From IMG/VR virus record IMGVR_UViG_3300026613_000033, positions 505 to 64,504 of that record: DNA of 64,000 bases; one strand, 5' to 3'. Origin of the DNA: a virus. A program made the translations under genes and the position numbers. The first letter of the stretch is position 1, and every line of letters starts with the position of its first letter. Shown here in pieces: positions 1,174 to 36,549 of the stretch. The notes under the pieces are model-generated. The model ran no database searches, was not told the DNA's origin, and saw only the letters and a program-made list of their open reading frames with translations.

Positions 1174-1181
1174 TATTTATG
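1174..1181 (-). promoter_or_regulatory. T4-type late promoter CATAAATA
   Basis: Overlaps the stop of the upstream ORF, about 33 nt before the 1141 start; the motif recurs before many late genes. Confidence 0.65.
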
Positions 1182-1719
1182 GTATGTAGTATTCGATTAA
1201 AATACTACCACCACCAACGGTTGCATCACCCATAGTTAGTGTCGCAAATGTCTGTTGTTCATCAGAAATTGTAATCTTATTAAAGGATGGATTCACATAC
1301 AAATCGTTTGTGTGTAAGTCAACCACTGTTGTATTAAAGATTGCATCAGCAGCCGATGTATTACCTAACGTCAGTGTCGCGGTAGTACCATCAAAGGCAT
1401 TGTCAATATTAACCATGTATTTAGTTATAATTGCACCAATCGGTAATTCGGAACCAACATTGAATGTACCTGCGTCTAATTGTGTGAAATCAACCGTAAA
1501 CGCGCCTTGGTTTCTTAAATCCGAGTATTGTTTAGTTGAAATCCCCATTGGTGTAACTGGGTCTGATTGTAATACCAATTCACTCTTAATCTCGTTAAGG
1601 AAAGTGTAGTAATATAAATTATCATCGGTTATATTCGTGTATGCGAATTTACCGTTACCCACATTGGCTACACTGAATCCACTCGACACTAGCGATGGAA
1701 AAATTGGCATCCAATTCAT
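1177..1719 (-). CDS. C-terminal part of a frame-split fibre/propeller gene (last propeller blade plus shared C-terminal domain X)
   Basis: No RBS before either ATG; begins with a blade-like segment (FSVANVGNGKFAYTNITDDNLYYYTF) continuing the upstream ORF; C-terminus is homologous to the ends of ORFs 21318 and 26211. Confidence 0.7.
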   Translation of the reverse strand: MNWMPIFPSLVSSGFSVANVGNGKFAYTNITDDNLYYYTFLNEIKSELVLQSDPVTPMGISTKQYSDLRNQGAFTVDFTQLDAGTFNVGSELPIGAIITKYMVNIDNAFDGTTATLTLGNTSAADAIFNTTVVDLHTNDLYVNPSFNKITISDEQQTFATLTMGDATVGGGSILIEYYIP

Positions 1720-4090: not shown

Positions 4091-4122
4091 ATTAAATTAC
4101 CTTTATACTTTTATTCTCGAAA

Positions 4123-4644
4123 TCATAATTTAATTCTAAGTTCACCAGTGACTGTCTTATAGACATCCCCCGTCAATAGGCCACCCGAACCCGCCGCAGC
4201 ATCATCTGCGTAAGTTGGAAGTGAAATGACACGTAGTGTATTAACAACACTTGAGCTTCCGCCACCGCCGCTACCTATGCCTGAAACAGGAACCCAAGTT
4301 GGAACATTGGGTGCCTCACCAACATACCAAAGATATAAAGAACCACCGTCCACATCAGAAGAATTCCACCAAAGTGTACCTTCAGTCGGTGAAGTTGGCG
4401 CAGTATCTGAAACGATAACTTCCGTTCCGCCACCGCCGCCAATAGCAACCCATTCGCTGTCCTTGTAAATGATTACATCATCTTCGGAAAAATCTGTACC
4501 AGATACATTACCGTCGTCGGCGGCTATGTACATTATACCTTCAGTGGTATCTGTAGGGTACAAACCCGTAGATGGCAACCATTCCTTTTTAAGGATTATA
4601 TTGGTTGTGTTATCACCATAAAATATATCTGAAATTCTTGTCAT
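4123..4644 (-). CDS. Short fibre-like virion protein
   Basis: 173 aa; first ~70 aa are homologous to the N-terminus of the 1533-aa ORF (8611..13212); has the fibre motif VSDTAPTSPTEGTLWWNS and Gly linkers. Confidence 0.7.
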   Translation of the reverse strand: MTRISDIFYGDNTTNIILKKEWLPSTGLYPTDTTEGIMYIAADDGNVSGTDFSEDDVIIYKDSEWVAIGGGGGTEVIVSDTAPTSPTEGTLWWNSSDVDGGSLYLWYVGEAPNVPTWVPVSGIGSGGGGSSSVVNTLRVISLPTYADDAAAGSGGLLTGDVYKTVTGELRIKL

Positions 4645-4679
4645 TTTCTCTTACCGAAAGTTATTCCTGTTAATATCCC

Positions 4680-4687
4680 TATTTATT
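4680..4687 (-). promoter_or_regulatory. Late promoter variant AATAAATA
   Basis: Intergenic, about 36 nt before the 4644 start. Confidence 0.5.
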
Positions 4688-4692
4688 GTAAT

Positions 4693-5535: not shown

Positions 5536-5571
5536 CCCAGAACCCTCTGATTTTTCTTTATCTGTTATTTA

Positions 5572-8610: not shown

Positions 8611-11600
8611 TTATAATGCTGTGTGACCTTGGAATACGAATTCGCCTGCAACATCAGATATGAATGTAACAAGTGAGTATTGGCCACCAGTTTTTGTATG
8701 ATTCGATGTATTATTTAGTAAAGCATTTCCGCCCGTACCGTCACCGACAAAATTAACGTCACCAGTATTAGCCTGAACCACTGAGAAAGTGAAACCTAAA
8801 GGTAAGCTATCAGGTACAGTCAAATCCACCGCCGTTGTATTGGTGAAGCGTAAAACCTTACCCGCATCGGATGCCTGTACAGTGTAATTAACGCTATGCT
8901 CATCGATTGTTAAATCTGTGCTACCCGCGTTATCGTCAACATACTTCTTGGTCGCGATGTAAAGGTCTTCGTCACCGCCAGTCATATTCTCAGTTTGTGT
9001 ATCAAGACTGATATTAGTGTTCGCGTTCAATGTCACCGCGCCTGTAGAGGCCGTGATAGTTGAGTTCGCACCAGTGGCGGTAAAGCTACCTGTACCACTT
9101 GTAATTTGAACACCATTACCACTTAGAAGATTCATTAAACCGCTACCGCTTGATAACGTTAAACCAGTACCACCCGCAACGTACATTGTTGTACCACCTA
9201 CGAAAGAGGCAGTAGAACCCGGCGCAGAAGTAATATCAATATTACCATCACTAACAAACGAAGTTAATGTACCGTCAATGTCGAATACCGTCGATAAATT
9301 CCAGTTAGTACCAGACTTAACACCACGGATATATTGACCTGCGAATTTAGACTGATATGTTGTACCTTCACTCAAACCATTGACGTAAATAGTGTCGCCA
9401 CCTTGAGCCTGAAATTCAGGTAAGTAAAGTGGGTTTACAGTTTGGTCAATTAACAACTCAAAAGACGTATCATCGTATGAAGCTGTATCTGGTAAAATCC
9501 AAGTAGAGCTTGCCGCTGTGTCAGTAATTTGTGAAATAACACGGTCGCCAACTTCAATTGTATCTGTAGCAACTGTACCAGAAACCACACGCCAGTTTGA
9601 AATACTGTCATCGACATAACCTTTCGTTGCAACATACAATGCTGAATCATTTCCAGTCATCGCCGAAGTCTGTTGATTCAGACTCACGTTCGTGCTACCT
9701 GAAACAATCGCTTGACCAGTTGTTGACGTAATAGAAGCAACCGTATTACCAGTTACAGAAGCTGAGCTACCAGTTAATACGGCACCTTGGTTCGGCGCTT
9801 CTAATGTAAGGTCAGCGTTCTGTGCGGTGATTGTAATACCTGTACCAACCGACGTTGATTCAATGTCGATGTCGCCAGTCGTTGTGTAATCTTCAGTAAG
9901 GCCACCCGCAGATGAAGCGAATAAGTGCCATTGGCTATTTGTTCTAACACCACGGATATATTGACCATCGAATTCAGCGGTATAACCACCAACGCCAACG
10001 CCGTTCACGAAAATAGAACTAGGTGATGTCAAGTTAGGTAGTGTACCATCGGAATCAATAATCATCTCGAATGAGTAACCTTCGTACTCACTGTTATTCG
10101 GCATGATGAATGAAGTAGGCGTTAATGAGTTACTTGCATTCGCAACTATCTTCTCATCTTTACCGATGGTGTATGTCGCTAACGTAGAACCCGTTACTCT
10201 ATTCCAAGACTTATTCGTACTTACTGATAAGTACCAAGTTGAGTTAATGAAAACACCCTTGACGTATTGACCATCAAAATCAACTGGCCATGTCGTACCT
10301 TGGTTTACACCATTGACATAAATCGTAGAACTCGAAGTGAAGTTTGGTAACACCGAGCCATTTTGTTCAATGACAGCTTCGAAAGATGTGTCATCGTAAT
10401 CCGCTGCACTAGATAAGAACCAGTTTGTGGCTGTTATACCACTGTTACCAGAAGTCGCTATGACAACACGGTCGTCAACCAAAATTGAACCGCCTGTTAA
10501 AGAGGTCGATGCCACCCTTCTCCATGTTGGGTCATACGCATCAGTACCTGCAACATACAAGAACGTACCAACTGACGTTCTGATAACACGAATGTTATCA
10601 CCAATGTTTGATGTGTATGTACTTGAGCCACTATCCACGCCATTGATAATCCAGTTACCAGATGGTGAAGTTAATGTCGGTGTACGTGTATCCAATACAA
10701 TATCAGAAATAGATATTTCGGCATCCAATGGGTTATCTGAACCAAAGGTGATATTCGTTCTACTTGCACCGAAGTATGAATCAACTAAATGCTTTTCACC
10801 ATTTTGAACAACAATACTAGAAACACTAGTACCCGTTGTCACGATGGTTTCATCACTGCCTGTATCAGGTACGGCATTTAAGTCGAAGATGTTCCAGTTT
10901 TGGCCAATCTTCACGAACCTATAGTTGTCGTTACCAGTCTTCGGTAAATTGAACGTACTACTACCCGTTGACACACCATCTTTATGAAAGTAGAAACCAG
11001 ATGATGAGCTACCTGTATAAACAGATGTGAAACCACTTGCTGTACCAACACGGGCACTACTGAATTCAACAACCGTACCGTCGGGCGAGAAAGCGTTTAA
11101 TGTAAGTTGTGCCGTACCCGCCGATGAAGAAACCTCAGAGAAACGATAATTCACATTGGCACGTTCTGTGTTTATTGAGAAAGTACCTCGTGATGAATCC
11201 AATAAGTAATATTTGTAAGGTGGTTCTATGAAACCATACTGCGAATTACCATCATCTATGAAATTGGCGATAATGCCGTAACTACTGAAATCATGATACA
11301 TTTGCTCAAGTGGTATCCTTGAACCCACACCCATATCATTAATCCTAAGCTTCCACGATGAACCACCTTGAAATGTAAAGCTTTCTATATTAACGTTATG
11401 ACCGTTGGCATAAATGTACCAATCGTTATTATTAATAGAGTTGAATGAACCATTTAATGTGATGTCACCATAAAGGTATAAGTAAACAGAGGTAGTTGAC
11501 TGGATGATATAATGTGACACATCACCAGTACCATCCAAGAAAACATTACCAATGTAACGACTTGATGAATCTGTGAAATCCAATAATGGGTCACTGTTCG

Positions 11601-13212
11601 TGTAGTTATTGAATGAAACCCTCACCTTCTTATCAAACATCGGCAAATTACTACCAAATGTTGCACCACCACTCATGTTAATGGATACTGGACTAGAACT
11701 AGCGTCATTTTGGTCATTGTAGTTACCACGGATGACCACCGAACTCCAATCGAGGTTGGCGTAATCCGTTGATGATAAACTCATTGACTGATTAAGATTG
11801 ATTGTAGGATAGCCGCCACCCGTCACATTGGCTAGATAATCATTTAAGTCAGCCACTAATAATGATTCATCGAAGTAAGCATCCGATGGAGCGTATTGGT
11901 TGAATGTACCATAAACGAAAAGTTTTTCTAACGTCGGTGATGCCGCGTTCGGGTCGAATAAACCATCTAGTTTATTAACACCGCCGTTTTCATCGACTAA
12001 TACGATGTCGCCATTAGAGTATGTGATACCGCCGATTGTAGCAGGCACCGTTAAGCTAGATGTATCCAACTTGACGATTTCACGGTAGTATTCTTTTGCA
12101 ATAGGTAATACTTCACTGGTGTCATCTGTTAAAGTTAATGTACGGCTGTACGGCTTAGACACACGAGTGTAATCTGTTGCATCTTCAACGTAGATGATTT
12201 CTTCTGGGATAATATCAGACTCAACTGGTGAACCAGTGATTAACGCCAAACTACCCTGTACTTCTGGTGGGAAATCATCTTGTGTATATGATGTTGACTC
12301 ATTGAAGATAAGTGGGGCACCCGCGATAGTTTGCGTAGGTACAACATTTCTTAGACTGTAGTCTGTGATTGTATCGGTTCCTGATTTATTATAGTAAACC
12401 ACGAATGATGCGTTATCATCAGTCATTTCAGCCGCAGTTGCATAGCCACCGTAAATAGGGATACCAACGATAGTACCGCCAGTCACATCAGTTGTCATAT
12501 CATTGATGTACAACTCAATATCCATGGTGTCATTGCTGTTGTAACGGTATTTGAAACCAATGGTATTAGTTGATGCCATCGAAGGTATAGTGTAATTATT
12601 ACCATTAATGTCAATTTCACCACCAGTGCTACTTAATTGCATAGTGGCTAAAATGACAAACTTATCATTAGCGGGGTTGATGACGAAATCATCACTATTG
12701 AATTGAATAACGTATACTATCGCAGCGTCCGTAGAAGCCGTCACAAACGGGTCAAGTTCAAGGTAAACCGAATAGAATGTATCTAAGTCCATGTCAACGT
12801 CGAATGGATTACCTAATGCAGTGGCCTGACCGTCACCCGTGACTGTGATTTCTTCGGTGATGTAAGAAGCATTAGCGTCTGGACCTGTTAAACCATTTGA
12901 TACAATTAAAGCTGTATTGGTTTCGAAATCAACTGGGTTATCAGAAACTATTGATGAACCAGTGACTTCATATTCAACAAGACCACCGCCGCCAGAAGAG
13001 CTACCGAAACGCCCCCATGCGCCATCCTTATAAAGAATAGAATCACCCGTCACGAACGTTTCTGTGTTCACTGTACCGTCGTCTTCTGCGACATATACGA
13101 AGCCCTCAGACGTATCTGTAGGGAATGCACCAGATGAAGGATTCCATGGCTTTCTCAATAATAAATTTGTTGACCCATCACCGTAGATGAAATCTGAAAT
13201 TGGCTTACTCAT
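8611..13212 (-). CDS. Long tail fibre (1533 aa) with tandem ~95-aa domains and C-terminal tip domain Y
   Basis: Gly/Ser/Thr-rich; repeated units ending FDGQY.RG...W.LS; two ATK.YVD motifs; C-terminus YTVQASDAGK.L.F...T.P...GF.FSVVQ...G.V is homologous to the end of ORF 18295. Confidence 0.8.
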   Translation of the reverse strand: MSKPISDFIYGDGSTNLLLRKPWNPSSGAFPTDTSEGFVYVAEDDGTVNTETFVTGDSILYKDGAWGRFGSSSGGGGLVEYEVTGSSIVSDNPVDFETNTALIVSNGLTGPDANASYITEEITVTGDGQATALGNPFDVDMDLDTFYSVYLELDPFVTASTDAAIVYVIQFNSDDFVINPANDKFVILATMQLSSTGGEIDINGNNYTIPSMASTNTIGFKYRYNSNDTMDIELYINDMTTDVTGGTIVGIPIYGGYATAAEMTDDNASFVVYYNKSGTDTITDYSLRNVVPTQTIAGAPLIFNESTSYTQDDFPPEVQGSLALITGSPVESDIIPEEIIYVEDATDYTRVSKPYSRTLTLTDDTSEVLPIAKEYYREIVKLDTSSLTVPATIGGITYSNGDIVLVDENGGVNKLDGLFDPNAASPTLEKLFVYGTFNQYAPSDAYFDESLLVADLNDYLANVTGGGYPTINLNQSMSLSSTDYANLDWSSVVIRGNYNDQNDASSSPVSINMSGGATFGSNLPMFDKKVRVSFNNYTNSDPLLDFTDSSSRYIGNVFLDGTGDVSHYIIQSTTSVYLYLYGDITLNGSFNSINNNDWYIYANGHNVNIESFTFQGGSSWKLRINDMGVGSRIPLEQMYHDFSSYGIIANFIDDGNSQYGFIEPPYKYYLLDSSRGTFSINTERANVNYRFSEVSSSAGTAQLTLNAFSPDGTVVEFSSARVGTASGFTSVYTGSSSSGFYFHKDGVSTGSSTFNLPKTGNDNYRFVKIGQNWNIFDLNAVPDTGSDETIVTTGTSVSSIVVQNGEKHLVDSYFGASRTNITFGSDNPLDAEISISDIVLDTRTPTLTSPSGNWIINGVDSGSSTYTSNIGDNIRVIRTSVGTFLYVAGTDAYDPTWRRVASTSLTGGSILVDDRVVIATSGNSGITATNWFLSSAADYDDTSFEAVIEQNGSVLPNFTSSSTIYVNGVNQGTTWPVDFDGQYVKGVFINSTWYLSVSTNKSWNRVTGSTLATYTIGKDEKIVANASNSLTPTSFIMPNNSEYEGYSFEMIIDSDGTLPNLTSPSSIFVNGVGVGGYTAEFDGQYIRGVRTNSQWHLFASSAGGLTEDYTTTGDIDIESTSVGTGITITAQNADLTLEAPNQGAVLTGSSASVTGNTVASITSTTGQAIVSGSTNVSLNQQTSAMTGNDSALYVATKGYVDDSISNWRVVSGTVATDTIEVGDRVISQITDTAASSTWILPDTASYDDTSFELLIDQTVNPLYLPEFQAQGGDTIYVNGLSEGTTYQSKFAGQYIRGVKSGTNWNLSTVFDIDGTLTSFVSDGNIDITSAPGSTASFVGGTTMYVAGGTGLTLSSGSGLMNLLSGNGVQITSGTGSFTATGANSTITASTGAVTLNANTNISLDTQTENMTGGDEDLYIATKKYVDDNAGSTDLTIDEHSVNYTVQASDAGKVLRFTNTTAVDLTVPDSLPLGFTFSVVQANTGDVNFVGDGTGGNALLNNTSNHTKTGGQYSLVTFISDVAGEFVFQGHTAL

Positions 13213-13236: not shown

Positions 13237-14385
13237 TTAAATTTTTATTCTTGTGTATCGGCCTGCCGTTCCTTGCTTACCGAATACTAGTAATTCATTA
13301 TGCTTATTCAATTGAACATGATAATCGTAACCGCTACCCCATGGTAAATCGGCTTCAGCTATTGTCGTATACTCTTGGGTGGGTAATACCAAAGATGAGT
13401 AATCACCTGTTACCGTTTTTACAACCCAAGTGTTATCACTATTGTCTCTATAACAAACACTAACTTGCCCATCCGACGACATAACGTAACTTAAATCGAA
13501 AGCGGTGATACCTGTACCACCACTGTAGTCTGTGTCGCCAAAATTTCGCCACACTGTATTCGATGTGTCCACGCCTTCGGCTTCGATGAAATAAAAGTTT
13601 TCGTCGCCTTCGTAAGCGTATAGGTATTGTCCATCGTTGGTTATTCTGGCACGGACGGTGAAATCAGCCGTGTTGTATTTTCTACCAACTATCGTAAGAT
13701 TATTTATGCCGCTACCTTGGTCATAATCGAAGTCAAATACATATTTATTAGAGGTTACGTTGACCACAAAACGCCTTGGGTTATCTAAAGCGAAATCCCA
13801 ATCTTTTATGCTCACTGAACCAAAAGACCAACTTTCGCCACTATCGACGTATGTTGTACCATTGAAATACCATAAGCTGAAAATCCTTGGTGTGTTCGGT
13901 ACAAGGACAACATTACCGTCGGGTGAAACTAAAGGCCCAACCGAAGGATATGAACCCCCGAAATCAGATAAAGCAATTGTGATGTCAATGTCAAATGTCG
14001 CCCAATCATCAGATGATGCCAGTATACGAGCATTATTATTTGTACCCAGATTACCGAGAGCTTGACCCAAAGCAACAATATTACCTTCTTTGTTCGCTGA
14101 AACAGTTTGACCCCACTGGTTATTGTAACTGAAACGAGTAACACCACTTGTGTTGCCATAGCTTTGAAAATCTGTGTAATAAACATTGTAATTTATTATG
14201 TTTGCACCATTGATAAAATCGCGGTATCCAGAAAACAAAACTTTACTTGTACCATTGGCCGAAACTTGGTTTTCATCAGTCACCCATAACCCATCGGTGG
14301 CCACGAATTCTTGGTATTCGGTGTCAGCCGTCAAATCAACGGTAGTCATTCTAAACGTGCCATCTGGCACTACTATGTTACTCAT
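13237..14385 (-). CDS. Beta-propeller protein, paralog 3
   Basis: 382 aa; repeated xSxDGxx blade motifs (VSANKEG, VSPDGN, ITNDGQ, MSSDGQ); tandem with two relatives. Confidence 0.7.
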   Translation of the reverse strand: MSNIVVPDGTFRMTTVDLTADTEYQEFVATDGLWVTDENQVSANGTSKVLFSGYRDFINGANIINYNVYYTDFQSYGNTSGVTRFSYNNQWGQTVSANKEGNIVALGQALGNLGTNNNARILASSDDWATFDIDITIALSDFGGSYPSVGPLVSPDGNVVLVPNTPRIFSLWYFNGTTYVDSGESWSFGSVSIKDWDFALDNPRRFVVNVTSNKYVFDFDYDQGSGINNLTIVGRKYNTADFTVRARITNDGQYLYAYEGDENFYFIEAEGVDTSNTVWRNFGDTDYSGGTGITAFDLSYVMSSDGQVSVCYRDNSDNTWVVKTVTGDYSSLVLPTQEYTTIAEADLPWGSGYDYHVQLNKHNELLVFGKQGTAGRYTRIKI

Positions 14386-21270: not shown

Positions 21271-21307
21271 CTTATATTTATGGCGCTCCGAAGAGCGCCA
21301 ATATAAG
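21271..21307 (-). terminator. C(UUCG)G hairpin (terminator or stabiliser) overlapping a late promoter
   Basis: Minus strand GGCGCTC-TTCG-GAGCGCC, extendable with a 3-nt bulge; CATAAATA at 21275..21282 lies in its 3' arm; no clean U tract. Confidence 0.6.
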
Positions 21308-21317
21308 TTTTAGTAGA

Positions 21318-23273
21318 TTAAACTACTAAATATTCGACAACTACTACGCCGCCGCCTTGAGTAGAACCGTCTGGCACAATGTCAATTTCTAATTGACGGT
21401 CGCCATCGATAGTCCACGCAAGTTCATTAGCGTATGTGCCTACAGTCGTAGGGTCATTCAAAGCTGTTGTTTGAACAGCGTCAGATGAAAGCGTCGTACC
21501 AATTGTTAAAGTTGGTGCGGTGCCGTCAAACGCCGTGGTGATTACGATTTTACTAGAAAGTACAATTGCACCAACTGGTAAAATGTCACCAATGTCAAGC
21601 GTACCATCAGTATGTGTGAACGTTGCAGTAACGCCGTCCATACCTGTAGAAGCAGCTTGTGCCGCGTCAACGTATGCTTTAACAGAGCTTGAAGTAGGAA
21701 CCTTATCTGTAGAACCAGTTACAACGTCTTCTGTTTGAACTTGTAATGCACCATTATCAAAACCTAAGAATGATGAATTACCAACAGAGTCAACGCGGTC
21801 AACTAGTGTCGATGTTGTTGTATCAGTATTGAAGATGTCGTCAGCGAAGAAGAAGAAATCACTCTCGCCTGCGCCATTTCTTTCAATGGTGCCACCAACA
21901 GCCGTCATACGGAATGCCCAAGTGTCAGTCGTGTCATCAACAGTCGCAACTTCGAAACGCCAGATGTCGCCATTGCCGTCCGTGATTTGCATTATGTCGC
22001 CAACAATTGGTTCAGGTGATAGAGCGATAGTAGAACCACCAGACTGAGCCGATACACGAATGATTGAACCCGCTGATTCAGATGAAACACCAGAAGAGTT
22101 ACTATCAGAAGTAACTGTGATGTCTGTCGTAACAACTTCTTCAGATACAGCAACTTGGAAAACCACTTTACCCGCATCAGTATTTGTTACAACACCGTCA
22201 CCACCTTCGAAGTCGATAGTAGAGTCAGCACCGTAAAGGCCAGTAGGACCTGCGTCGGCATTAACGTTTAAAATCGTACCAGTGATTTTATCAGAATTAA
22301 CACTGTCGATTTTGTCGTTTGTTACCGCGTCGTTTACGATTTGGTCAGTGTCAACAGCATTGTCCGCAATCTTATCGTTTGTCACCGCGTCGTTTGCTAA
22401 TTTAGCAGTAGTGATACTACCGTCAGCAACCGCCGAAGCTTCTTCTTTAAGAGTGTACGTTATCGCATCGGTATCAATCGCAGGGTCGTCATCACCTGTG
22501 TATGCATATACACGGCCTGCGCCCAAAGAACCACTTGAAACAGAAACAGTTTTGTTCGTTTTGAATTCACTGTCTTCGTCAGCGTCTAATGCACGAACCC
22601 ATGAACCTGCTTTCGCTAAGTAGATACCGTTTTCTAAGTCAGAACTACCTGATTGGTTGATTAAAAGTACACGGTCGTCGTTAAGTAACGTTTCGCCGTC
22701 GATTGTAAGTAAACCACCAGTTGAAATGTCGATTTCAGCTTCAGAAACAACTTTTACAGATGTCCAGAATGCACCAACACCCGCTGTCTTGAAGTCAACG
22801 TAAGACTTAACAGATTGTTGCGTAGGAACTTGTGTATCGGAATCCGAAACTAAGTCGTCTTCGTCAACAACCCATGAAGAACCTGAGACATCAGTCTGGT
22901 TGTTCATAGTCGCGCCTGCCGCCGCTACATTGATAGAATCAGTAACGTCAGCTAAAGGCTCGATGCCTGATAACTTGGCCACGTCTGCGTCAGTGAAAGC
23001 ATTGGTATCAGCATTACTTTCGTATAGAGATTTAATCTCAGCAGGCGTAAGGTCTGTTGTCATTTCACGCCAGTCAGCATTAGTAGGACCAATCCTTTCA
23101 AAACGAGCATAGTCGTCAAGGTTTAGGTATACCGTGCCTATTGGCGTATTGATTACACCGTCGTCAGTAGATAGATTCGGTAAGCCAGAACCTTTTAAAA
23201 GAATCTGGCGGTTCGCGAATTCTACGTTATTACTTTCAACGTGGTTATTAAATAGAGTATCAGAAACAGACAT
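21318..23273 (-). CDS. Fibre-like virion protein (651 aa): anchor A, shared ADTNAFTD module, DRVL..NQ module, C-terminal domain X
   Basis: Motifs TIDGETLLNDDRVLLINQ...ENGIY...W.RA.DAD and repeated ITTAKLA/VTNDKIA; C-terminus is homologous to ORFs 1177 and 26211. Confidence 0.8.
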   Translation of the reverse strand: MSVSDTLFNNHVESNNVEFANRQILLKGSGLPNLSTDDGVINTPIGTVYLNLDDYARFERIGPTNADWREMTTDLTPAEIKSLYESNADTNAFTDADVAKLSGIEPLADVTDSINVAAAGATMNNQTDVSGSSWVVDEDDLVSDSDTQVPTQQSVKSYVDFKTAGVGAFWTSVKVVSEAEIDISTGGLLTIDGETLLNDDRVLLINQSGSSDLENGIYLAKAGSWVRALDADEDSEFKTNKTVSVSSGSLGAGRVYAYTGDDDPAIDTDAITYTLKEEASAVADGSITTAKLANDAVTNDKIADNAVDTDQIVNDAVTNDKIDSVNSDKITGTILNVNADAGPTGLYGADSTIDFEGGDGVVTNTDAGKVVFQVAVSEEVVTTDITVTSDSNSSGVSSESAGSIIRVSAQSGGSTIALSPEPIVGDIMQITDGNGDIWRFEVATVDDTTDTWAFRMTAVGGTIERNGAGESDFFFFADDIFNTDTTTSTLVDRVDSVGNSSFLGFDNGALQVQTEDVVTGSTDKVPTSSSVKAYVDAAQAASTGMDGVTATFTHTDGTLDIGDILPVGAIVLSSKIVITTAFDGTAPTLTIGTTLSSDAVQTTALNDPTTVGTYANELAWTIDGDRQLEIDIVPDGSTQGGGVVVVEYLVV

Positions 23274-26179
23274 TATACAGTCTCCTCAATTACTAGCTCA
23301 TATGTACCTGCGGTGAAGTTACCAACGCCGATATTCCAGTCTAGGTTAAAGAAGTAACGACCAGTCGCATCGAAGTCTAATGTTTCAGGAACATTTGAAT
23401 CAACGATGGTGTAACCGTATTGAACAGATGTTGAAGGTGCGCTTGGGAATGAACCCCAACCACCAGAAGTGCCGTCATTGGTTAATGCTTCTTGTGTACT
23501 AGCAAAACCGTTTAGGTCTAAGGATGGGCCATCTGTGTAGGTTAATGTCGTTTCAGTTGGGTAGTTTGGTGAGTTATCGTTTGTGATAACAACTACTTTA
23601 CTGTCGTCAACAACAGTTGTACCGATGTCGGCAATCCAACGTGGCGGTGAACTGATTGAGAAAGTAACAGCACGAGCAACGAAGCCACCAACAACATAGT
23701 TTTCATCACCAGAAGCGATAGTATTAACAGGGATACCTGCCAAGTTAGTCACACCAGAAGCAGCACTAAATGTTGCAGCACCTTGAGGTGAGTTTGCAGG
23801 GTTTTCGTCAATCTCTAAGTTACGAGTTAAACGACCTTGCGTACCGTTGTTATTGTAAGACCATGAAGCGCCTTGCCATGTACCAGATGAAGCAGTTAAG
23901 TCAAAACCACCGTCGATTAAACGCTGTGAACAATCCACTTGAATTAGGTGATTCTCACCTGTAGGTGCTGAACGTAAACGAGCCGCAGGTACAGAGATTG
24001 TCAATTCAGGTGTTGTGTTAGCGATGAATACGATGTCTGTGTCACTACCAGTACGACCATTTTCTGTACGAGTAACATCAACCTGAACGTTTGCAGAGCT
24101 AATGTTGTAACCGCCAGAAGCGTAAGTCGCTGTACGTGTTGCTTCAGTACCATCAAGGTCATCTAATGTAACTTGGCTTAATGGTGTAGACCATGTTGCT
24201 GTACCAGAGATACCTGAGTTACCGATGTTGGTAGAGAAGTTTACAGTCGCTGATTCGCCAGACTTGATAGCTTGTTGTGAAGCAGGGTAGCCTGAAATAG
24301 AAATCGAAGCAGAAGGTGCAACGTTATCACAGATTACTGTGTGTACTTCATCAGTAGAACCGAAGTCAGTTGAGTTAGCGTAATCGCCAGTGAAGTTGTT
24401 GTCGTCAGTAGCACGAGCCGAAATACTACGCGCAGTAGTGTTTACAGTGTTGTGGTTCTGAGTAGTAGCTGTAATAGTGTAGTCGTAACCACCACCATTA
24501 AAGTTACCGCCATTTTGACCAGAAACGTTAAATGTACCGTCTGCAACAGCGTTGTCGTTTGAAGATTGACCGTCATTCAATTCAATCGTTTCAACTTCAA
24601 CGTCAGTTTCGATGTGAACAGTTACACTTACGCCACCCGCTAAACGAGATGAACCAGAAGCCGCATTTTCGTATACGTTACCTACGCCGTCGAATTCGAT
24701 TTTTTGGATGACTGGGCCTGCGCCTACGGTTAATGTAGTAGTTGCAACGTCGCCGTCTTGGTGAGTAGCTTGAATCAAACCATCTGTCGCACCAATTAAA
24801 TCAGCCGTACCAACCCAATAACCGTTGGTTAATGTGAAGTTAGAAACTGGAACAGAAGCACCTAAACCAACCGCGTCAACAGTAGCTGTAGGGATAAAGC
24901 CAGTAGAACCACCTAATGCAGTAACTTCAACACGGATGTCATTCGTATCAGAGAAGATAGAAGTAACTTCGCCGTTTGTGATAGTTGGGTTTACAACTTC
25001 ACCGCCGTTGATGTTTGTCGCATTAGTGATAAAGATTTGCTGAACAGAACCAGAAGCCGCTGCGTCAACGTATGCTTTAACAGATTGCTGTGTTGGAACC
25101 AATTGGTCTGAATCAGAAGCCATGTTGTCTTCATCAACAACCCAACCCGCCGCACTTACGTCGGTATCAACATACATGGTTGCACCCGCCGCACTTACGT
25201 TATCTGAATCAGTAACGTCAGCTAAAGCTTCAATGCCGTCTAACTTAGCTTCATCAGCGTCTGTGAATGCATTGGTGTCAGCATTGTTTTCGTATGCAAT
25301 TTTGATTTCAGCGTCGGTCATATCCGCCGTAGCGCCTGCCTCAATACCTGCTAACTTATCAATGTCAGCTTGAGTAGTCCACTTGTTTGTTTGACCTGTG
25401 TCTGAGATGTCGTCAGTCTCAAGTACAACTGTACCAGTTTGACCGTTTACAGATTCAACTGGTGATGTGATTTTAGCAAACTGTACGAATGTAAGTGGTG
25501 TAGTACCAACTACAATCGGGTTTGGTGTGGTTAAAATCCATGCTGTGCTATCATTGGCTGTACCGTCGATAACAACAGTGTACATACCTTGACTAACTTC
25601 GCCTTGTGGATTACCGTCAGCGTCTTCCGCTCGTGACCATACACCAGAATCAACAACCCAAATACCATTTTCTTCTGGGTTAGTGTCTTGGTTTTTAACA
25701 AGAACACGGTCGCCTGCAACAAGTGCAACACCGTCAATTGTTTGTGTACCAGAAAGAGTGATGTCCGTTTCATTTGTAGTAGTAGCTGCATTACACGCCG
25801 CTTTTGGTTGAAGACCTGCGATTGCATTATCAACGTAAGCTTTGGTTGCCGCGTCAGTGTCAGCAGTTGGTGTATCAGTAATCTCAATGCTAGAGAATTT
25901 TGCTGTACCATCTGCGTTTACAAATGCCGTTTCTGAATCGCCAGTATCTTTGAAAGATATAAGGCGGTCAGTGTCTGACATACCTGCGCCAGTAGCAGAG
26001 TAAATTACTTCACCGCTAGTGGAATCAATGATAATAGGCGCTCCATTATCGTAAGCCATTTGCAACGTAATCGGATTGCCGTCTATTTCAAACGTACCAC
26101 CGTTGTCGCTAATGACTAAGCCGCCTTTACCTAATTGTAAAAGACCGCTTACGCCATCTATATCGAATCTTTTAGTCAT
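23273..26179 (-). CDS. Fibre / virion structural protein (968 aa)
   Basis: DAATKAYVD; GTQTIDGVALVAGDRVLVKNQ...ENGIWVV...W.RAEDADG; KLAGIEAGA; C-terminal ~590 aa are paralogous to ORF 28959..31229. Confidence 0.8.
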   Translation of the reverse strand: MTKRFDIDGVSGLLQLGKGGLVISDNGGTFEIDGNPITLQMAYDNGAPIIIDSTSGEVIYSATGAGMSDTDRLISFKDTGDSETAFVNADGTAKFSSIEITDTPTADTDAATKAYVDNAIAGLQPKAACNAATTTNETDITLSGTQTIDGVALVAGDRVLVKNQDTNPEENGIWVVDSGVWSRAEDADGNPQGEVSQGMYTVVIDGTANDSTAWILTTPNPIVVGTTPLTFVQFAKITSPVESVNGQTGTVVLETDDISDTGQTNKWTTQADIDKLAGIEAGATADMTDAEIKIAYENNADTNAFTDADEAKLDGIEALADVTDSDNVSAAGATMYVDTDVSAAGWVVDEDNMASDSDQLVPTQQSVKAYVDAAASGSVQQIFITNATNINGGEVVNPTITNGEVTSIFSDTNDIRVEVTALGGSTGFIPTATVDAVGLGASVPVSNFTLTNGYWVGTADLIGATDGLIQATHQDGDVATTTLTVGAGPVIQKIEFDGVGNVYENAASGSSRLAGGVSVTVHIETDVEVETIELNDGQSSNDNAVADGTFNVSGQNGGNFNGGGYDYTITATTQNHNTVNTTARSISARATDDNNFTGDYANSTDFGSTDEVHTVICDNVAPSASISISGYPASQQAIKSGESATVNFSTNIGNSGISGTATWSTPLSQVTLDDLDGTEATRTATYASGGYNISSANVQVDVTRTENGRTGSDTDIVFIANTTPELTISVPAARLRSAPTGENHLIQVDCSQRLIDGGFDLTASSGTWQGASWSYNNNGTQGRLTRNLEIDENPANSPQGAATFSAASGVTNLAGIPVNTIASGDENYVVGGFVARAVTFSISSPPRWIADIGTTVVDDSKVVVITNDNSPNYPTETTLTYTDGPSLDLNGFASTQEALTNDGTSGGWGSFPSAPSTSVQYGYTIVDSNVPETLDFDATGRYFFNLDWNIGVGNFTAGTYELVIEETV

Positions 26180-26210
26180 AGTTTAATACCTTTATTGAGT
26201 TAAAAGAAGT

Positions 26211-27200
26211 TTAAATGAAATATTCAACTAAAATCGTACCTGAACCCTGAGTTACCCCAGTGCCCAAAGAAATTTCAGCCGTAATTTGTCGTTCGGTGAC
26301 ATTAGAACCAGTCTTTAACATCAGCGCATTCTCATAAATACCGCTAACTTCCGCCTCAACAAGGTCTGAAGTCATAATGATTGTGCCGTTTGCCTGTGTA
26401 CCAATCTCAATAGTTGTTTCTGTTGAACCGTCGAATGCGTCATCTATTTGTACCTTCGCACTAAAGATGTAAGCATTTTCTGGTATGGTGCCACCAATTA
26501 AAAATGGCGCACCCGCATCAGCGAATGTAAAATCATAAGAACGTCCTAAAACATTCTCAGTGACCGCACCGCCACCAGTAACAATTTCCCATGCATTATC
26601 TCTACGTCCATATATGTTGCCGTCAGATGGTGCATCTTGGATACCCAACTGAGTCGTGTCCAAGTCAGTGAACTGCGTATTGGCAACAGCCGTTATCGCA
26701 GCGTTGACTTTGTATATAGAGCCTTCATGTGTGATGATGTCATCTAAGCTATACGACGTATTTATTGCATAGCCTTTGATACCACCACCGATTTCGTAAG
26801 TCTCAACATCGCTGAACTGTGTGTTGTTCGCCGCAATGATGCTACTCACTACAGTGTAGATATAACCGCCATTAGCTAGTAAGTCACCGACACCGTAATC
26901 TGTTCCCGCCGCATATGGTTGTACCGCACCACCTACGCCGCCGCCACCGCCAATATCAACGGTAGTCCAATCTGAATCCAAGATACCATCTTCCAGTGTC
27001 CAAACTGTCTGTGTATCTATTTGATAAACCCACATCCCTTCTTCACGACGTGCATCAGTAATAGCAAGTCGCGCAGCCGCATCAGCCACCGCACGGAAAC
27101 CGCCTTTACCATATTCGGTAAAATGCGTTGGGTACTTATCTAAAGTATCCGTAGGCGAAATCGGTGATGTGAATTTAATTGTGTTTTCTATAGCCGCCAT
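26211..27200 (-). CDS. Virion protein: YPTH-type N-domain, two CBM5/12-like repeats, foldon-like motif, C-terminal domain X
   Basis: YPTHFTEYGKGGFR...RREEGMWVY; repeats Y..G..Y..GD.....G.IY.V; DAPSDGNIYGRRDNAW. Confidence 0.7.
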   Translation of the reverse strand: MAAIENTIKFTSPISPTDTLDKYPTHFTEYGKGGFRAVADAAARLAITDARREEGMWVYQIDTQTVWTLEDGILDSDWTTVDIGGGGGVGGAVQPYAAGTDYGVGDLLANGGYIYTVVSSIIAANNTQFSDVETYEIGGGIKGYAINTSYSLDDIITHEGSIYKVNAAITAVANTQFTDLDTTQLGIQDAPSDGNIYGRRDNAWEIVTGGGAVTENVLGRSYDFTFADAGAPFLIGGTIPENAYIFSAKVQIDDAFDGSTETTIEIGTQANGTIIMTSDLVEAEVSGIYENALMLKTGSNVTERQITAEISLGTGVTQGSGTILVEYFI

Positions 27201-27205: not shown

Positions 27206-28954
27206 TTAAGCCTCTGTAACTTCAATGTTTAATGAACCCGCGAATTGTGTCACCGACCTGTAAATTTCATAGGTTTCGGTCACGGGTGATGTCGCATCAT
27301 TTGTAACACTTATACCAGTTTCCACTTTAGAGAAATTGACGGGTGCATTGTTGTCATTATCAAACCATAAACCCATACCATTACCATCTATTCTAGTAGG
27401 TACACAAATGTAGAAATATGTGTCCGCTGTACCTGTACCAGTCGTGTATGTTCTTTCGTAATTATTGGTAATAATATCTTGGCTTAAACCAACAACATCC
27501 GTTGAATTATTTATAGTAGCTAATTCTGATTTTCCGTAATAAATCCTGTTCGCAAAGCGTAGATTGAAATTAATTGACGCATTACCGTAAACAGCACTTG
27601 TCGCATTCAATGTCCATGACTCATCATCGGTTTCAGTAAGACCAGTTACATCACCAGTTTGTGATGAAGGTAACAATGTCGGAAGCGTACCCGTACCGAT
27701 AACATTCTGTGTATCAGGCGTTTCATTCCACGCCCAATTCAATGTCACCTCAGTAACCGTTTCACCCATATAAGCAAAGCCATTCTGTAACGCGGGTACA
27801 GCAGAAATACTACTTGACACACGAGCCAATGGCGTGTATGGGATATAAACGTTCGCTTGGTCTGGGTCATTCGCATCAGCAATCGCTTGTACATCTGTAC
27901 CCAAGAAATTCAACTTGGTAAAGTTACCAAGACTCGCACCTTGACTTAAAATCTCAAGCGCACCGCCACCTGATAAGGATGTCGTGTCAACGTCGCTGAA
28001 TTGCGTATTGGCCACGTCCGTGATAGCTGTATTAACGCGGTAAAGATTACCTTCATGTGTGATTAAGTCCAACTCAGAATAAGCCACACCCGCCGCATAA
28101 ATCGTGATACCACTATTTTCACCAATCGGGGTAACGTCCATAGAAAGGAATGATGTATTAGCACCCGCACTGATTGCCGTATTAACGCGGTAAATGCCAC
28201 CTTGGTATGTGATGATGTCGTCAACACTAAATGGTGTAAGTTCTGCATAAGCCGCAATACCACCACCAATCATATGACTCTGTACGTCACTGAAGCCTGT
28301 GTTCACTGCGCCATTGATTGCAGTCACAACCGTGTATAACTCACCTTGGTAAGAAATGATGTCACCCGCCACATAAGAATCACCAACGGTGTACGGTTTG
28401 ATAACACCAGTGCCATCGCCTTCGCCAATCATAGAGATGTAAGGTAGGATGTCATTAAACGACGTATTCACTGTATCAGGAATAAGCGTATTAACGGTGT
28501 ATAACTCACCTTCTTGTGCGATGATGTCAAATTGCTGATAGGAAACGCCAACTTGGTATTCTTTAACCACGCCGCTACCACCGCCGCCAGAGCCTATATC
28601 AACGGAAGGCACACCAGTCCATGTACCGCCTGCTTTTGGGCCGTATAGGAGGTTGGTGTTTGTGTTGTACCATAAGTCACCATCGACACCCACGGCATCG
28701 TCATTCGGTGGCGTTTGGAATGAATACATCAATGAACCGTAAATTGTTGGGATGGTTGAATAATCAATCATGTTCCAAAGGTTATTACGACGCTCAAAAC
28801 GTGTCGCCGTGGCGGTATCAAAAAAGTAGTCACCCTCGTTACCGAAAAATGGTGGGCTACCGTCATATCTTTGTAAAGGCTGATAGTTACCCAACTCCGT
28901 GTAAAAGGTAACTAGGAACGCTTGGAATTCCTCTTGAGTTACGAACTCGTCCAT
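27206..28954 (-). CDS. Fibre-associated protein with four CBM5/12-like repeats
   Basis: 582 aa; four ~47-aa repeats (e.g. PYTVGDSYVAGDIISYQGELYTV); G..GD.YY.T...LYGPK..G.W fibre motif. Confidence 0.7.
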   Translation of the reverse strand: MDEFVTQEEFQAFLVTFYTELGNYQPLQRYDGSPPFFGNEGDYFFDTATATRFERRNNLWNMIDYSTIPTIYGSLMYSFQTPPNDDAVGVDGDLWYNTNTNLLYGPKAGGTWTGVPSVDIGSGGGGSGVVKEYQVGVSYQQFDIIAQEGELYTVNTLIPDTVNTSFNDILPYISMIGEGDGTGVIKPYTVGDSYVAGDIISYQGELYTVVTAINGAVNTGFSDVQSHMIGGGIAAYAELTPFSVDDIITYQGGIYRVNTAISAGANTSFLSMDVTPIGENSGITIYAAGVAYSELDLITHEGNLYRVNTAITDVANTQFSDVDTTSLSGGGALEILSQGASLGNFTKLNFLGTDVQAIADANDPDQANVYIPYTPLARVSSSISAVPALQNGFAYMGETVTEVTLNWAWNETPDTQNVIGTGTLPTLLPSSQTGDVTGLTETDDESWTLNATSAVYGNASINFNLRFANRIYYGKSELATINNSTDVVGLSQDIITNNYERTYTTGTGTADTYFYICVPTRIDGNGMGLWFDNDNNAPVNFSKVETGISVTNDATSPVTETYEIYRSVTQFAGSLNIEVTEA

Positions 28955-31259: not shown

Positions 31260-31267
31260 TATTTATG
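31260..31267 (-). promoter_or_regulatory. Late promoter CATAAATA
   Basis: Intergenic, about 31 nt before the 31229 start. Confidence 0.65.
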
Positions 31268-32087: not shown

Positions 32088-32100
32088 TTAACTTCTCCCC

Positions 32101-35100: not shown

Positions 35101-36549
35101 ACGTTGTGGCGGTAATTCAGTAATACCGTTTACGGTGTCGGTGATGAAGAATTCACGCTCGAAACTTAACGTCTTATTAGTACGCTCAATCTCTGTAATA
35201 ATCCAACCGTTTGCCTTACCATTTTCGTAATTAGAAAGACTTGAGTAAACGTATTTCACTTTACGAACAGACGCATCAAACTGTACGAACAAATCTTGAA
35301 CGTATTGTGTGTCGATGCCTTCTAAACCTTCGATGAATTTAAACTTATTCGTGTCAACAACACCGTCGTATGTCGGCTTTGTCACGAAATCACTACCATT
35401 CAATGGAATGCCGTCACGAGTCTTCCAAATAGGACGGATAACAAAAGGTCTGCCCGTGTCATTAACGATGGTAATTGTACGACTTGTATAATCCTCTTCA
35501 TCTTCTAATGATTGTGGGTATGGAAACAAAATTTCCCAATCGGCGATGGTGTAACGTGTACTTGAGTTGTTCTTCAAGATTACTGAGTTACCATTACCGT
35601 CGCCCCACCATTGGTCATCCATCTGAATCGTGTTACACGCCGCATTACTACCTTCCCAATACGGTTCACGCCCCGCCGATGAAGCAGGTATCTGTTTGAA
35701 CGTACTGGTTAATTTAGGGTTGAAGTAAATCGTTGTCGGTTCAGTAGGTGTACCATTCGTTTGTGTCGCACGGTTTGCTGAGAAACATGGGCGCTCAAAT
35801 AACTCACGGCCTTTTAAATCTTCCGCCGCATTAAATGGGTCAAACTTATATACTGTCCAACCAACGTCATCGCCACCATAAACCACTTCAAGGTTTAAGC
35901 CTGCCGATGTGAAGAATAATTCGTCTTGTGCTTCCGTTGGCGGAATTGGTGTATTAGGGAACGTCACTGGCTTGTAAGAACGACTTACACCACCAATATT
36001 AACGTGCGCTGCATTCGGTAATAAACCCGTCACATTCTTGTTGACTTTACCCCAGTTCCATTCACTGATATTCGCGCCAGTGTATTCATATGGCGAAGCA
36101 GAAATAATAACACGGTTGCCGTTGCCTAATGTGTTGTTAAGGTCGCGGATTTTTACCACGTCACCTTTGTTGGCCAATGGTAAAACAATACGGTAGGATT
36201 CATTACTGCCCATAGCAGAAAAGTCGAAAGCGACTTGTTCGCCTCGACTCATAAAAAACATATTTGCGTCGGTGCCGTCTGAGCGGGTTACGCCGGGGCT
36301 TCGGGCGCGTACTTTTTGCCAGAAACCTGAAGGGTGTAACTGTGCATTGAAGTCGTCAATGGTCGCCGCTTGGTTTCTACAACCGTAATACGGGTCAGCC
36401 GTTTCTTCAACAATAGGAACGTCACCATATTGAGAATAAATGTCAACAAAGTTGTTGTTTATTCTACGACCACCTTCACGCGCTGAACTACCATCACCAG
36501 AATCAGCCGCGCTACCAAGGTTTATTAAATTTAGACCGATACCAGTCAT
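32101..36549 (-). CDS. Baseplate-anchored fibre with gp9/gp10-like N-terminus (1482 aa)
   Basis: INLGSAADSGDGSSAREGGRRINNNFVDIY resembles the T4 gp9/gp10 N-terminus; internal KRS...EGELAI...G.LY module; C-terminal KWGTV...SVSF...F....YSIQLT fibre-tip domain. Confidence 0.75.
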   Translation of the reverse strand: MTGIGLNLINLGSAADSGDGSSAREGGRRINNNFVDIYSQYGDVPIVEETADPYYGCRNQAATIDDFNAQLHPSGFWQKVRARSPGVTRSDGTDANMFFMSRGEQVAFDFSAMGSNESYRIVLPLANKGDVVKIRDLNNTLGNGNRVIISASPYEYTGANISEWNWGKVNKNVTGLLPNAAHVNIGGVSRSYKPVTFPNTPIPPTEAQDELFFTSAGLNLEVVYGGDDVGWTVYKFDPFNAAEDLKGRELFERPCFSANRATQTNGTPTEPTTIYFNPKLTSTFKQIPASSAGREPYWEGSNAACNTIQMDDQWWGDGNGNSVILKNNSSTRYTIADWEILFPYPQSLEDEEDYTSRTITIVNDTGRPFVIRPIWKTRDGIPLNGSDFVTKPTYDGVVDTNKFKFIEGLEGIDTQYVQDLFVQFDASVRKVKYVYSSLSNYENGKANGWIITEIERTNKTLSFEREFFITDTVNGITELPPQRHESEFPVTLLDVSEQGNVARNAVINIITGERASQDPYFDADGARIQAIDMTVTVNGVEYVQGGIDSADFYPFYGTGVSLTDTQPNDYNNTPNVHKRYSLFNGIHFNTPLLPGDFVTVRWKTLDEVDVLETAAIRDIVESLVPNFISTDQDLTIINTNNASNKGSIFGGIISQGQLLPTASISGNFVMDESIWDAGRYTSNDSTVSLYGYRHKRSFDSILKPNSTEIMEGELAIGFQNGVLYSRNDSGIVVQIGLNKIGDDSKTGSLAINEGAFIVNSTATGDDTAISVPELSTSYFGAVQITQLNSRDNQPIEIESASLGDTTVTGVLTIEGSIESETNGDIDVDSPLSVNASMTVNGTIGSPTVSDPLNFISPIQVGNISVNNITPISPATTVTFGSGLTASSTIWANGNIQSSNDLVVIDDAVRVTGEENFFTSPTTGIYFAATTKNDAPRSIAINDNSGDFSLKSGHRAGANPSQDGQYITSNDGAAIVKMDTDGADGEVFLGTALGGLDSVAGQPFTWASHLSINPSRTYVSNDLEVEGTLKINTLQSLIVNDPLTISDDLVISPTNDLVTRHIRSSVDGDPVDASTLDINIVASDVVLSGRASVDTIESTNPSSNAITLQSDTVVDAAYKLSVGTINAGTDSQVVFENDAYVDGTIVSTGNVTTEANVLAEGGTYQFGDTSSGFDMTQDGSTFRMQFADSGSFSSNNDRVIEATKNGSTSLYHDGTKMIETESNGARVYGGLRLTSGSQSQTSGSGHFQGGTIALGGNTGGRIGAGMRVENDSTIYIGHSTKTDGSGEGNITLSTTQNRAISAVREGGVSLYYNNEERLMTTDDGIEINKSLIVGTDGTGGIQFGGGTSTNVWNLVEDNGEIFVRHGSDLSNGNSDDLKIFDGNEITEDFTMVSEQQQVIGQTMTKWGTVQVTTSGSLSVSFSMGDFANTNYSIQLTPQLDGLTVVDISYSGKGTNGFTIHCDLDNASLNGDINVDFLVIGQKA

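Follow-up and report, generated by a model that had tools for sequence, protein, structure and literature searches.

The DNA analysed here, a 64,000-nucleotide stretch called the window (bases 505-64504 of the 71,367-base IMG/VR virus record IMGVR_UViG_3300026613_000033, which CheckV rates as ~32% complete), carries a large fibre gene cluster. This cluster is probably the host-recognition module of a T4-like myovirus, encoding several fibre types with different non-enzymatic binding heads and enlarged by the addition of both modules and whole cassettes. It consists of the minus-strand open reading frames (ORFs) of at least 100 amino acids between 36549 and 1177, named G1 to G18 in transcription order (Table 1), which amount to 11,690 amino acids over ~35 kb. 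The genes for the neck protein gp14 and for gp15 lie immediately upstream. The cluster is, as judged from its genes, the host-recognition region of an uncultured, deep-branching, large T4-like myovirus. The predicted contents are one gp10-like protein (G1) and at least eight proteins of the trimeric-fibre type built from few exchangeable parts. These putative parts are the anchors gp10-N, A (twice), B (twice) and C, shaft repeats joined by TKxYVD linkers, and the ends X (three times) and Y (twice). Directly downstream of fibre genes are encoded apparently lectin-like proteins that have no anchor, namely two proteins with leucine-rich repeats (LRR) of the DUF285 type, a propeller trio and a DUF4915 protein.

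The original prediction, made from the sequence letters, had described positions 1177-36549 as a run of co-oriented genes that reuse a small set of modules. The run is present, with 18 ORFs by our count, and in an all-versus-all comparison with BLASTP and phmmer every module named in that prediction aligned significantly at the gene ends to which it had been assigned. BLASTP returned 12 related protein pairs in the real set and 0 in each of 20 residue shuffles; at least one module is shared with another cluster protein by 14 of the 18 proteins, the exceptions being G1, G2, G15 and G17. Anchor A heads G8 and G7 (51% identity over 88 amino acids, E 2.9e-20), and anchor B heads G13 and G16 (53% over 62 amino acids, E 1.3e-18). 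Domain X forms the C-termini of G18, G7 and G5 (27-36% identity, E 1e-10 to 5e-9), tip Y those of G13 and G8 (36% over 103 amino acids, E 3e-13). A large body is common to G6 and G3 (24.6% over 647 amino acids, E 7e-19), and the carbohydrate-binding module (CBM) repeats of family CBM5/12 in G4 and G5, identified by Pfam, are 51% identical over 104 amino acids. The shaft modules of G6 and G7 are 57% identical over 134 amino acids (E 2e-32), and the motifs ADTNAFTD and DRVL..NQ are found literally in both proteins; their opposite order shows rearrangement beyond mere duplication. Additional related sets are formed by G9 and G14, both DUF285 proteins, and by the paralogues G10, G11 and G12. One claim needed adjustment: TK.YVD linkers had been reported from at least five genes, and the strict pattern occurs in three only. 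The relaxed pattern [TSV]K.Y[VSIL][DN] does reach five genes, with 9 sites in the cluster; shuffles predict 0.14, and the remaining 8,527 amino acids encoded by the window contain 1 site.

By sequence divergence the reused modules are old, because their amino-acid identity ranges from 25 to 57% and the best DNA repeat covers 138 nucleotides (nt) at 75%. Hypervariable fibre genes are prone to misassembly in metagenomes, and the array could have been produced by stringing together allelic fibre variants of related strains. Such an artefact is highly improbable: the paralogues differ far too much to be alleles of related strains, the DNA has no long repeats that are nearly identical, and the order of G8-G18 recurs in an independent contig of 347 kb, in one of 410 kb and partly in two further contigs, designated L003 (from ENA) and L004 (from Logan). 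Fibre segments that could be inverted or switched were ruled out as well, as the search revealed only four weak inverted repeats (25-29 nt) and no near-identical direct repeats.

The G6/G7 shaft is, on sequence grounds, a commodity fibre repeat. Searches with the G7-type shaft yielded 9,507 cluster representatives at E values up to 1e-3, in proteins of 250 to 3,900 amino acids; both G6 and G7 have tail-fibre matches in PHROG, and residues 259-393 of G6 match a solved fibre, gp28 of the cyanophage (cyanopodovirus) P-SCSP1u (PDB 8i4m, E 1.8e-21). The body of G3 is a paralogue of the G6 body, and G3 residues 51-125 resemble residues 69-134 of G16 (phmmer E 4e-7). The gp10-like domain of G1 scored 33.4 bits with PF07880 (cut-off 25) and 39 bits in a second scan, and a weak Gp53-like_C match was found at the G1 C-terminus. 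No match to G1 was obtained in PHROG, PDB and phage BLAST searches, nor to its N-terminus by tblastn against phage genomes, and residues 1-450 retrieved only themselves from an index of 5.8 billion proteins.

A link to branched receptor-binding complexes is provided by G8, whose two copies of the gp9/gp10-type domain XD1 share 31% identity (E 2.5e-19) and which reaches 28.1 bits with PF07880. A profile of G8 and two metagenomic homologues matched the sequence of the TSP4-N crystal structure of phage CBA120 at residues 72-172 (E 2.5e-9); hhalign paired G8 residues 65-169 with TSP4 residues 69-174 at a probability of 95.2%, and both G8 copies match TSP4 XD1. Between the two copies lie HxH motifs at residues 200 and 232 (window 20500-20620), which are conserved in the homologues and reminiscent of the HxH sites that bind metal in trimeric fibre beta-helices. 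In TSP4, XD1 comes after the anchor domain and a tetra-glycine linker and is a spacer to which trimeric partners cannot bind, the docking platforms being XD2 and XD3 (PMC8825819). As the TSP4 segment matched by G8 is XD1, which follows the TSP4 anchor, the alignment places anchor A at the position equivalent to the TSP4 baseplate anchor. Single-sequence phmmer searches of the window proteins with TSP4 residues 183-340 and TSP2 residues 1-175 returned nothing significant for XD2/XD3 (best E 0.038, knob X). The branched or multi-site apparatus that had been proposed is thus backed by a primary fibre with anchor and XD1, and lacks a detectable counterpart of the docking domains, for which reason a branched topology can only be inferred. 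The fibres might form a branched complex like that of CBA120 or a serial one like the T4 long fibre, or they might be mounted at multiple sites on an enlarged baseplate.

The cluster resembles the TSP1-4 complex of CBA120 (Ackermannviridae) in that receptor-binding proteins are encoded side by side and that in a primary protein, here G8, an N-terminal anchor leads via a glycine linker to an XD1 of the gp9/gp10 type. It differs in its 18 genes compared to 4, in the two XD1 copies split by the HxH segment, in the lack of detected XD2/XD3 domains and in the T4-like phage backbone. Moreover, the putative heads found here are of the LRR, propeller, CBM and jellyroll types, unlike the beta-helix glycosidases of CBA120.

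Such LRR-like, propeller and CBM heads had also been predicted. Pfam supports DUF285 (PF03382, cut-off 25, passed by G14 and G9), CBM5/12 (PF02839, cut-off 26.2, exceeded by G4 with 54 bits and G5 with 31.2 bits) and DUF4915, and the propeller assignment comes from one Atlas model. This model of G12 has a predicted TM score (pTM) of 0.71 and TM scores of 0.58-0.69 to WD40/lactonase propellers; an AF2 model of the same protein from a 4-sequence alignment was unusable (predicted local distance difference test score, pLDDT, 37.7). G10-G12 are probably beta-propellers, G15 is by its family match probably propeller-like, and G4 and G5 are putative carbohydrate binders via CBM5/12. Knob X was modelled from a nine-sequence alignment as an eight-stranded jellyroll (pLDDT 88.5, pTM 0.78). 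Among predicted viral structures (BFVD) it resembles longer phage proteins with TM scores of 0.70-0.77, and some of the weaker matches, at 0.54-0.59, carry annotations as tail fibre, tail or structural proteins. The model is a confident one and shows a jellyroll knob like those of phage cement proteins and fibre ends. X stands C-terminally in all nine proteins found to carry it. Tip Y has no detectable solved relative, as PDB sequence searches with the Y profile, and likewise with G1, G3, G4, G13 and the X profile, produced nothing significant. The Atlas models of G6 (pTM 0.32) and G17 (pTM 0.35, weak FG-GAP/lactonase leads) are poor and provide leads only. Depolymerases are not apparent: in sequence searches of Pfam, PHROG and PDB, no beta-helix of a lyase or hydrolase matched any of the 18 proteins. 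The proposal that the heads are used instead of depolymerase spikes agrees with the absence of a Pfam match to one, and this absence is its entire basis.

Part of the cluster has a history of its own. Nine of the 11 genes of the block G8-G18 have counterparts in G001, a 347-kb IMG/VR contig (94% complete), which keeps the same gene order: a G8-like fibre, a DUF285 protein, three propeller paralogues, an anchor-B fibre, a DUF4915 protein and a 1041-amino-acid protein leading from anchor B to X. Identities within this cassette range from 30 to 80%. The G8-like fibre (1141 amino acids) is 45% identical overall and 80% in tip Y, the DUF285 protein 46%, the 967-amino-acid anchor-B fibre 32% to the N-terminal 353 amino acids of G13, and the DUF4915 protein (265 amino acids, equivalent position) 35% to G15. 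In a tree, the propeller paralogues of the two phages are not one-to-one orthologues and two G001 copies are a lineage-specific duplication, which indicates rapid turnover. When all 36 window proteins were compared to the whole of G001 by tblastn, matches were obtained only for proteins of the cassette, for pieces of X and shaft and for one lipase-like protein; gp5, gp6, gp7, gp8, gp14, gp15, the tube cap and the DUF4815 protein had none. G001 is nevertheless not an unrelated phage type, an option ruled out by its T4-type gp15, which was missed by protein-level searches and recognized by a hidden Markov model (PF16724, E 6e-33); it is 19% identical to gp15 of the window. The similarity of the fibre block thus greatly exceeds that of the virion core, which is most simply read as a horizontal transfer of the ordered block. 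A CATAAATA motif, discussed below, directly precedes the shared block at 21275-21282.

The lipase-like protein (62939-63913) is the sole non-fibre window protein with a BLAST-level match in G001 (29% over 265 amino acids, with a second, weaker copy). G001 also encodes a second X-ending fibre of 978 amino acids (163270-166200) and, far from the shared cassette, another G6/G7-type shaft module (176127-176582), so that it appears from its sequence to carry several fibre loci. Other relatives are few. G8 has only two close homologues among 5.8 billion proteins. In L003 a G6-like body gene, whose 821-amino-acid product is 38% identical to the G6 body over 606 amino acids, is followed by a G8-like gene, a DUF285 gene and a propeller gene; L004 has a G8-like gene followed by a DUF285 gene. 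Because L003 has no G7 between its G6-like and G8-like genes, G7 looks like a mosaic of anchor A, G6-type shaft and X that was added in the window lineage. The Y-tip alignment found a single assembly in JGI metagenomes, a 410-kb contig that also encodes the G001-type 1041-amino-acid protein and is probably the same phage as G001. For G1-G7, a search of IMG/VR with the G6-family alignment detected short shaft matches only; anchor C was found in G001 and in the sequence labelled L013.

The end of the block raises the question whether part of the array is evolutionary debris, that is, fibre genes split or superseded after repeated cassette replacement, in which case module reuse would merely record history. 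Anchor B, body and X are encoded by three ORFs (G16, G17 and G18) in the window and by one in G001 (L011:2079-5204), whose N-terminus is 59% identical to G16 over 107 amino acids and whose C-terminus is 42% identical to G18 over 131 amino acids, with a different middle; whole-genome tblastn revealed no G17 homologue in G001. G16 and G18 share a reading frame, G17 uses another one and overlaps G18, and the age of the shared modules would fit as well. A single frameshifted G16/G17 gene is unsupported at the junction, as the G17 frame has a TAA 9 nt 5' of its ATG. We consider debris quite unlikely, because the 18 ORFs, every one of them long and intact, lie close together in one orientation and have plausible starts, G17 begins at an ATG of its own and has a ribosome-binding site, the same genes are intact in relatives, and G7 is identical in two independent contigs (71,367 and 70,587 bases).

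Two gene junctions recur. A Y-tipped fibre gene is followed within a few nt by a DUF285 gene in five of five contexts (G8, G13, L003, L004 and G001). In G001 the single DUF285 gene adjoins the single Y tip, and no DUF285 gene comes after the Y-less fibre. The start of G9 listed at a TTG (18335) is probably wrong, since relatives align from Met16; the start would then be at 18290, separated by 5 nt from the stop of G8. Complex prediction with three Y regions and G9, using alignments for both, lent weak support to an interaction (score 0.42; runs 0.42, 0.30 and 0.54; best control 0.00), with at least 82% contact agreement and a partner pLDDT of at least 76. In the calibration, 58 of 80 solved complexes and 2 of 110 mismatched pairs reached the pass mark; those that did so with scores up to 0.60 comprised only 7 of the 80 solved complexes, together with both passing mismatches. 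Gene order and complex prediction taken together make docking of DUF285 proteins on Y tips plausible. At the second junction, an X-ending gene directly precedes a gene starting with anchor C (MTK.F/YD...LGK.G) in four of six contexts: G5 to G6 in the window (26179-26214), G001 at ~166,200 and ~331,210, and L013:10503-10547. This order hints that X may be a joint and not a free tip, and that X and anchor C are a possible docking pair.

Both junctions would also suit a small number of composite fibres, in which the products of consecutive genes are linked in series, in the manner of the T4 long tail fibre (gp34-35-36-37 plus gp38), with X and Y as internal joints or knees and ~4-6 fibre types per virion. 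Start and stop codons that overlap or lie a few nt apart, suggesting coupled translation, fit this design too. It is less easily reconciled with G7, which ends in X and is followed by an anchor-A gene across a promoter-bearing gap, with G18, whose X end is followed by a small membrane/coiled-coil ORF, and with the context labelled P0157, in which the X/anchor-C pattern is missing. Six anchor types, moreover, fit a purely serial design poorly, and we regard such fibres as a serious but rather doubtful alternative. Regarded just as tentatively is an extension of the host-recognition module favoured here to a non-enzymatic plug-and-socket network, in which DUF285 proteins sit on Y, anchor-C fibres sit on X, and G8-G18 is passed on as one block among large phages with virion cores too diverged to be recognized by BLAST. 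If true, this would be a transferable host-range organ, as opposed to single-gene fibre swapping.

Another possibility concerns the small proteins that have no anchor. The genes of T4 gp38 and gp57A, and those of the Tfa proteins of P2, Mu and lambda, adjoin fibre genes, but their products are not found in the virion. In the same way, the propeller trio, DUF4915, G2, G16 and possibly the DUF285 proteins might be fibre assembly chaperones or non-structural late proteins, which would bring the receptor-binding repertoire far below 16-18. They have no recognizable fibre anchor or shaft, and the propeller paralogues turn over fast without being one-to-one orthologues between the two phages; fast divergence, however, equally fits receptor-facing proteins. 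LRR, propeller and CBM are typical binding folds and not known as fibre-chaperone folds, the DUF285 arrays (545-1006 amino acids) are large for that role, and G9 shows weak predicted docking on the Y tip. This explanation is judged unlikely.

A host-recognition module with several fibre types remains the preferred reading, and several observations speak against it. The large bodies of G1, G3, G6, G13 and G17 matched no known fold, which leaves room for enzymatic spikes, and the proteins without an anchor could be assembly chaperones instead of virion heads. The gp10-like domains found are XD1-type only, which act as spacers in TSP4 (PMC8825819), and XD2/XD3 had no significant match. The three ORFs G16-G18 opposite one ORF in G001 may indicate that part of the array is split or decaying. 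Finally, the score for Y and G9 falls in a range where passes are more often wrong than right unless a strong prior exists.

In the mechanism proposed here, the virion would probably present several types of fibre simultaneously, and the non-enzymatic binding head would differ from type to type. The anchor would set the mounting site of each trimer, with a separate socket for every anchor type, located either on the enlarged baseplate or on a further fibre, and commodity shafts would set the reach. The interchangeable ends would either do the binding themselves (X, CBM) or carry a lectin-like head that is encoded by another gene (Y with DUF285); DUF285 proteins would then cap Y tips in the manner of the gp38 adhesin on gp37 in T2-type phages. 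The set probably grows through module duplication and recombination, as suggested by the G7 mosaic and the permuted module order of G6 and G7, and by importing whole multi-gene cassettes such as G8-G18, which also occurs in the 347-kb phage. The homology of the modules, the domain families, the synteny and the shared cassette are directly visible in the sequences; incorporation into virions, the docking place of each part and the overall topology are inferred.

Table 1. Genes, domains and promoter-like motifs in the window (aa, amino acids)
Feature	Positions	Strand	Description
Tail tube cap-like gene	61006-62100	-	T4-type virion gene upstream of cluster
gp5-like hub	58075-59097	-	
gp6	54888-56654	-	
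gp7	50135-54895	-	
gp8	48573-50078	-	
DUF4815 protein, 2197 aa	39700-46293	-	phrog_358, E 7e-295; between gp8 and neck gene
Neck protein (gp14)	38254-39420	-	
gp15	36595-38247	-	directly upstream of fibre cluster
CATAAATA motif	36582-36589	-	upstream of G1
Further CATAAATA copies	31260-31267, 21275-21282, 18480-18487, 13701-13708, 1174-1181	-	first before G3, second before G8
G1, 1482 aa	32101-36549	-	gp10-like baseplate-periphery protein; gp9/gp10 N-domain residues 8-152 (36094-36528), long extension
G2, 270 aa	31275-32087	-	occupies the place of T4 gp11 in gene order
G3, 756 aa	28959-31229	-	fibre; N-terminus like long tail fibre distal subunit (phrog_1699, residues 6-48)
G4, 582 aa	27206-28954	-	CBM5/12 repeats residues 96-330 (27965-28669); PF02839 54 bits, 2 stretches
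G5, 329 aa	26211-27200	-	CBM5/12 residues 59-187 (PF02839 31.2 bits); knob X residues 221-329 (26214-26540)
G6, 968 aa	23273-26179	-	N-terminal anchor C; DRVL..NQ at 157, ADTNAFTD at 300; body residues 380-947
G7, 651 aa	21318-23273	-	mosaic; anchor A (23064-23273); shaft modules in order opposite to G6; knob X residues 517-651 (21321-21725)
G8, 972 aa	18295-21213	-	primary-type fibre; anchor A (21004-21213), XD1 copy 1, HxH, XD1 copy 2, shaft, tip Y
G8 XD1 copy 1	20680-20991	-	residues 75-178; gp9/gp10-type, ~100 aa
G8 XD1 copy 2	20083-20403	-	residues 271-377
G8 tip Y	18298-18594	-	residues 874-972
G9, ~530 aa	16698-18290	-	DUF285 (BspA-type LRR) protein; PF03382 228.7 bits
G10, ~380 aa	15508-16680	-	diverged paralogue of G11/G12
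G11, ~380 aa	14385-15527	-	23% identity over 393 aa to G10
G12, ~380 aa	13237-14385	-	paralogue of G10/G11
G13, 1533 aa	8611-13212	-	fibre; anchor B (12982-13212), long shaft, tip Y residues 1429-1533 (8614-8928)
G14, 1006 aa	5572-8592	-	~10 DUF285 repeats; PF03382 538 bits, 10 stretches
G15, 280 aa	4693-5535	-	DUF4915 protein; PF16261 90.6 bits; weak DUF5050 match
G16, 173 aa	4123-4644	-	anchor B (4426-4644), short shaft piece
G17, 811 aa	1655-4090	-	body; own ATG and ribosome-binding site
G18, 180 aa	1177-1719	-	knob X residues 48-180 (1180-1578); overlaps G17 end in another frame

Every substantial ORF of the window lies on the minus strand. The closest isolates, at ~30% gp6 identity, are marine T4-like phages, among them the Pelagibacter phages Mosig and HTVC008M, the Methylophilales phage Melnitz and cyanomyoviruses. 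Mosig has about five fibre-annotated genes across 9 kb. Megablast with 22 kb of the window found no DNA-level relative in INPHARED, a search for gp15 relatives within IMG/VR returned none, and neither of two queries listed any sequencing runs, RNA data included. The motif CATAAATA, which resembles a late promoter, has 12 matches in the window compared to 4.2 +/- 2.3 expected, ten of them on the coding strand and mostly 30-70 nt 5' of start codons; TATAAATA, the T4 late promoter, occurs once per strand. By analogy with TATAAATA, CATAAATA is a candidate late promoter. The copy at 1174-1181 precedes the ORF after G18 (755-1150), whose 131-amino-acid product combines a hydrophobic stretch with a coiled-coil-like tail and does not resemble a fibre; in L013, too, the fibre genes are followed by a small ORF of this kind.

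The T4 likeness comprises the core proteins gp5, 6, 7, 8, 14 and 15, the gp10-N domain at the head of the cluster and the arrangement of a fibre gene followed by the gene of a putative tip protein, which resembles gp37/gp38. Unlike in T4, the cluster follows gp15 and not gp8/gp9, and it has far more genes. G2, which has no Pfam or PHROG match, may be the gp11 counterpart by position; neither G2 nor G3, at the gp11 and gp12 positions, shows detectable similarity to gp11 or gp12. No homology to gp11, gp12 or gp34-38 was found in the cluster, the sole hint being a weak GP11 match (residues 634-670) in the DUF4815 protein outside it. This protein may be an enlarged baseplate-periphery protein with extra sockets.

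In the classical fibre mosaics of P2, Mu, P1, lambda and the T-even phages, shared segments occupy equivalent positions of different fibre genes and are exchanged between unrelated phages. Here, in contrast, reuse takes place within one genome over 14 genes, and the exchanged unit includes an ordered block of ~10 genes. The Alcyoneusvirus RaK2/phiK64-1 and phiKp24 are large myoviruses with 9-14 clustered fibre genes (fourteen fibres in phiKp24; PMC9700779), whose N-terminal structural parts were proposed to set the order of attachment (PMC10253068, PMC9700779). The phage of the window is likewise a large myovirus with clustered fibre genes. Their fibres are beta-helical capsule depolymerases for Klebsiella K types, none of which was detected here, and several putative heads of the present cluster are separate genes that encode no anchor. 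The marine Vibrio jumbo myovirus pir03 encodes large DUF285/PARCEL/BspA-like proteins, annotated only and without a link to fibres (PMC7765460). A weak XD1-type match was found in pir03 as well. Unlike in pir03, each DUF285 gene of the window comes right after the gene of a Y-tipped fibre.

Module shuffling among fibre genes and arsenals of multiple receptor-binding proteins are both established ideas. New, as far as the encoded proteins tell, would be the larger cluster, the non-enzymatic binding folds (within the limits of detection), the splitting of some heads from their fibres and the transferable block. Practical value is limited, because the evidence is at gene level. The conserved junctions (Y tip/DUF285 and X knob/anchor C) single out protein pairs that can be tested without phage culture, and an ordered block in two very distant large phages is a concrete case of cassette-level transfer of host-recognition hardware. 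Multi-fibre arsenals have so far been known mainly from Klebsiella and enterobacterial phages with capsule or O-antigen depolymerases. The cluster suggests that an environmental T4-like lineage uses the same strategy, its heads being of the lectin type (LRR, propeller, CBM and jellyroll) and partly encoded as separate genes.

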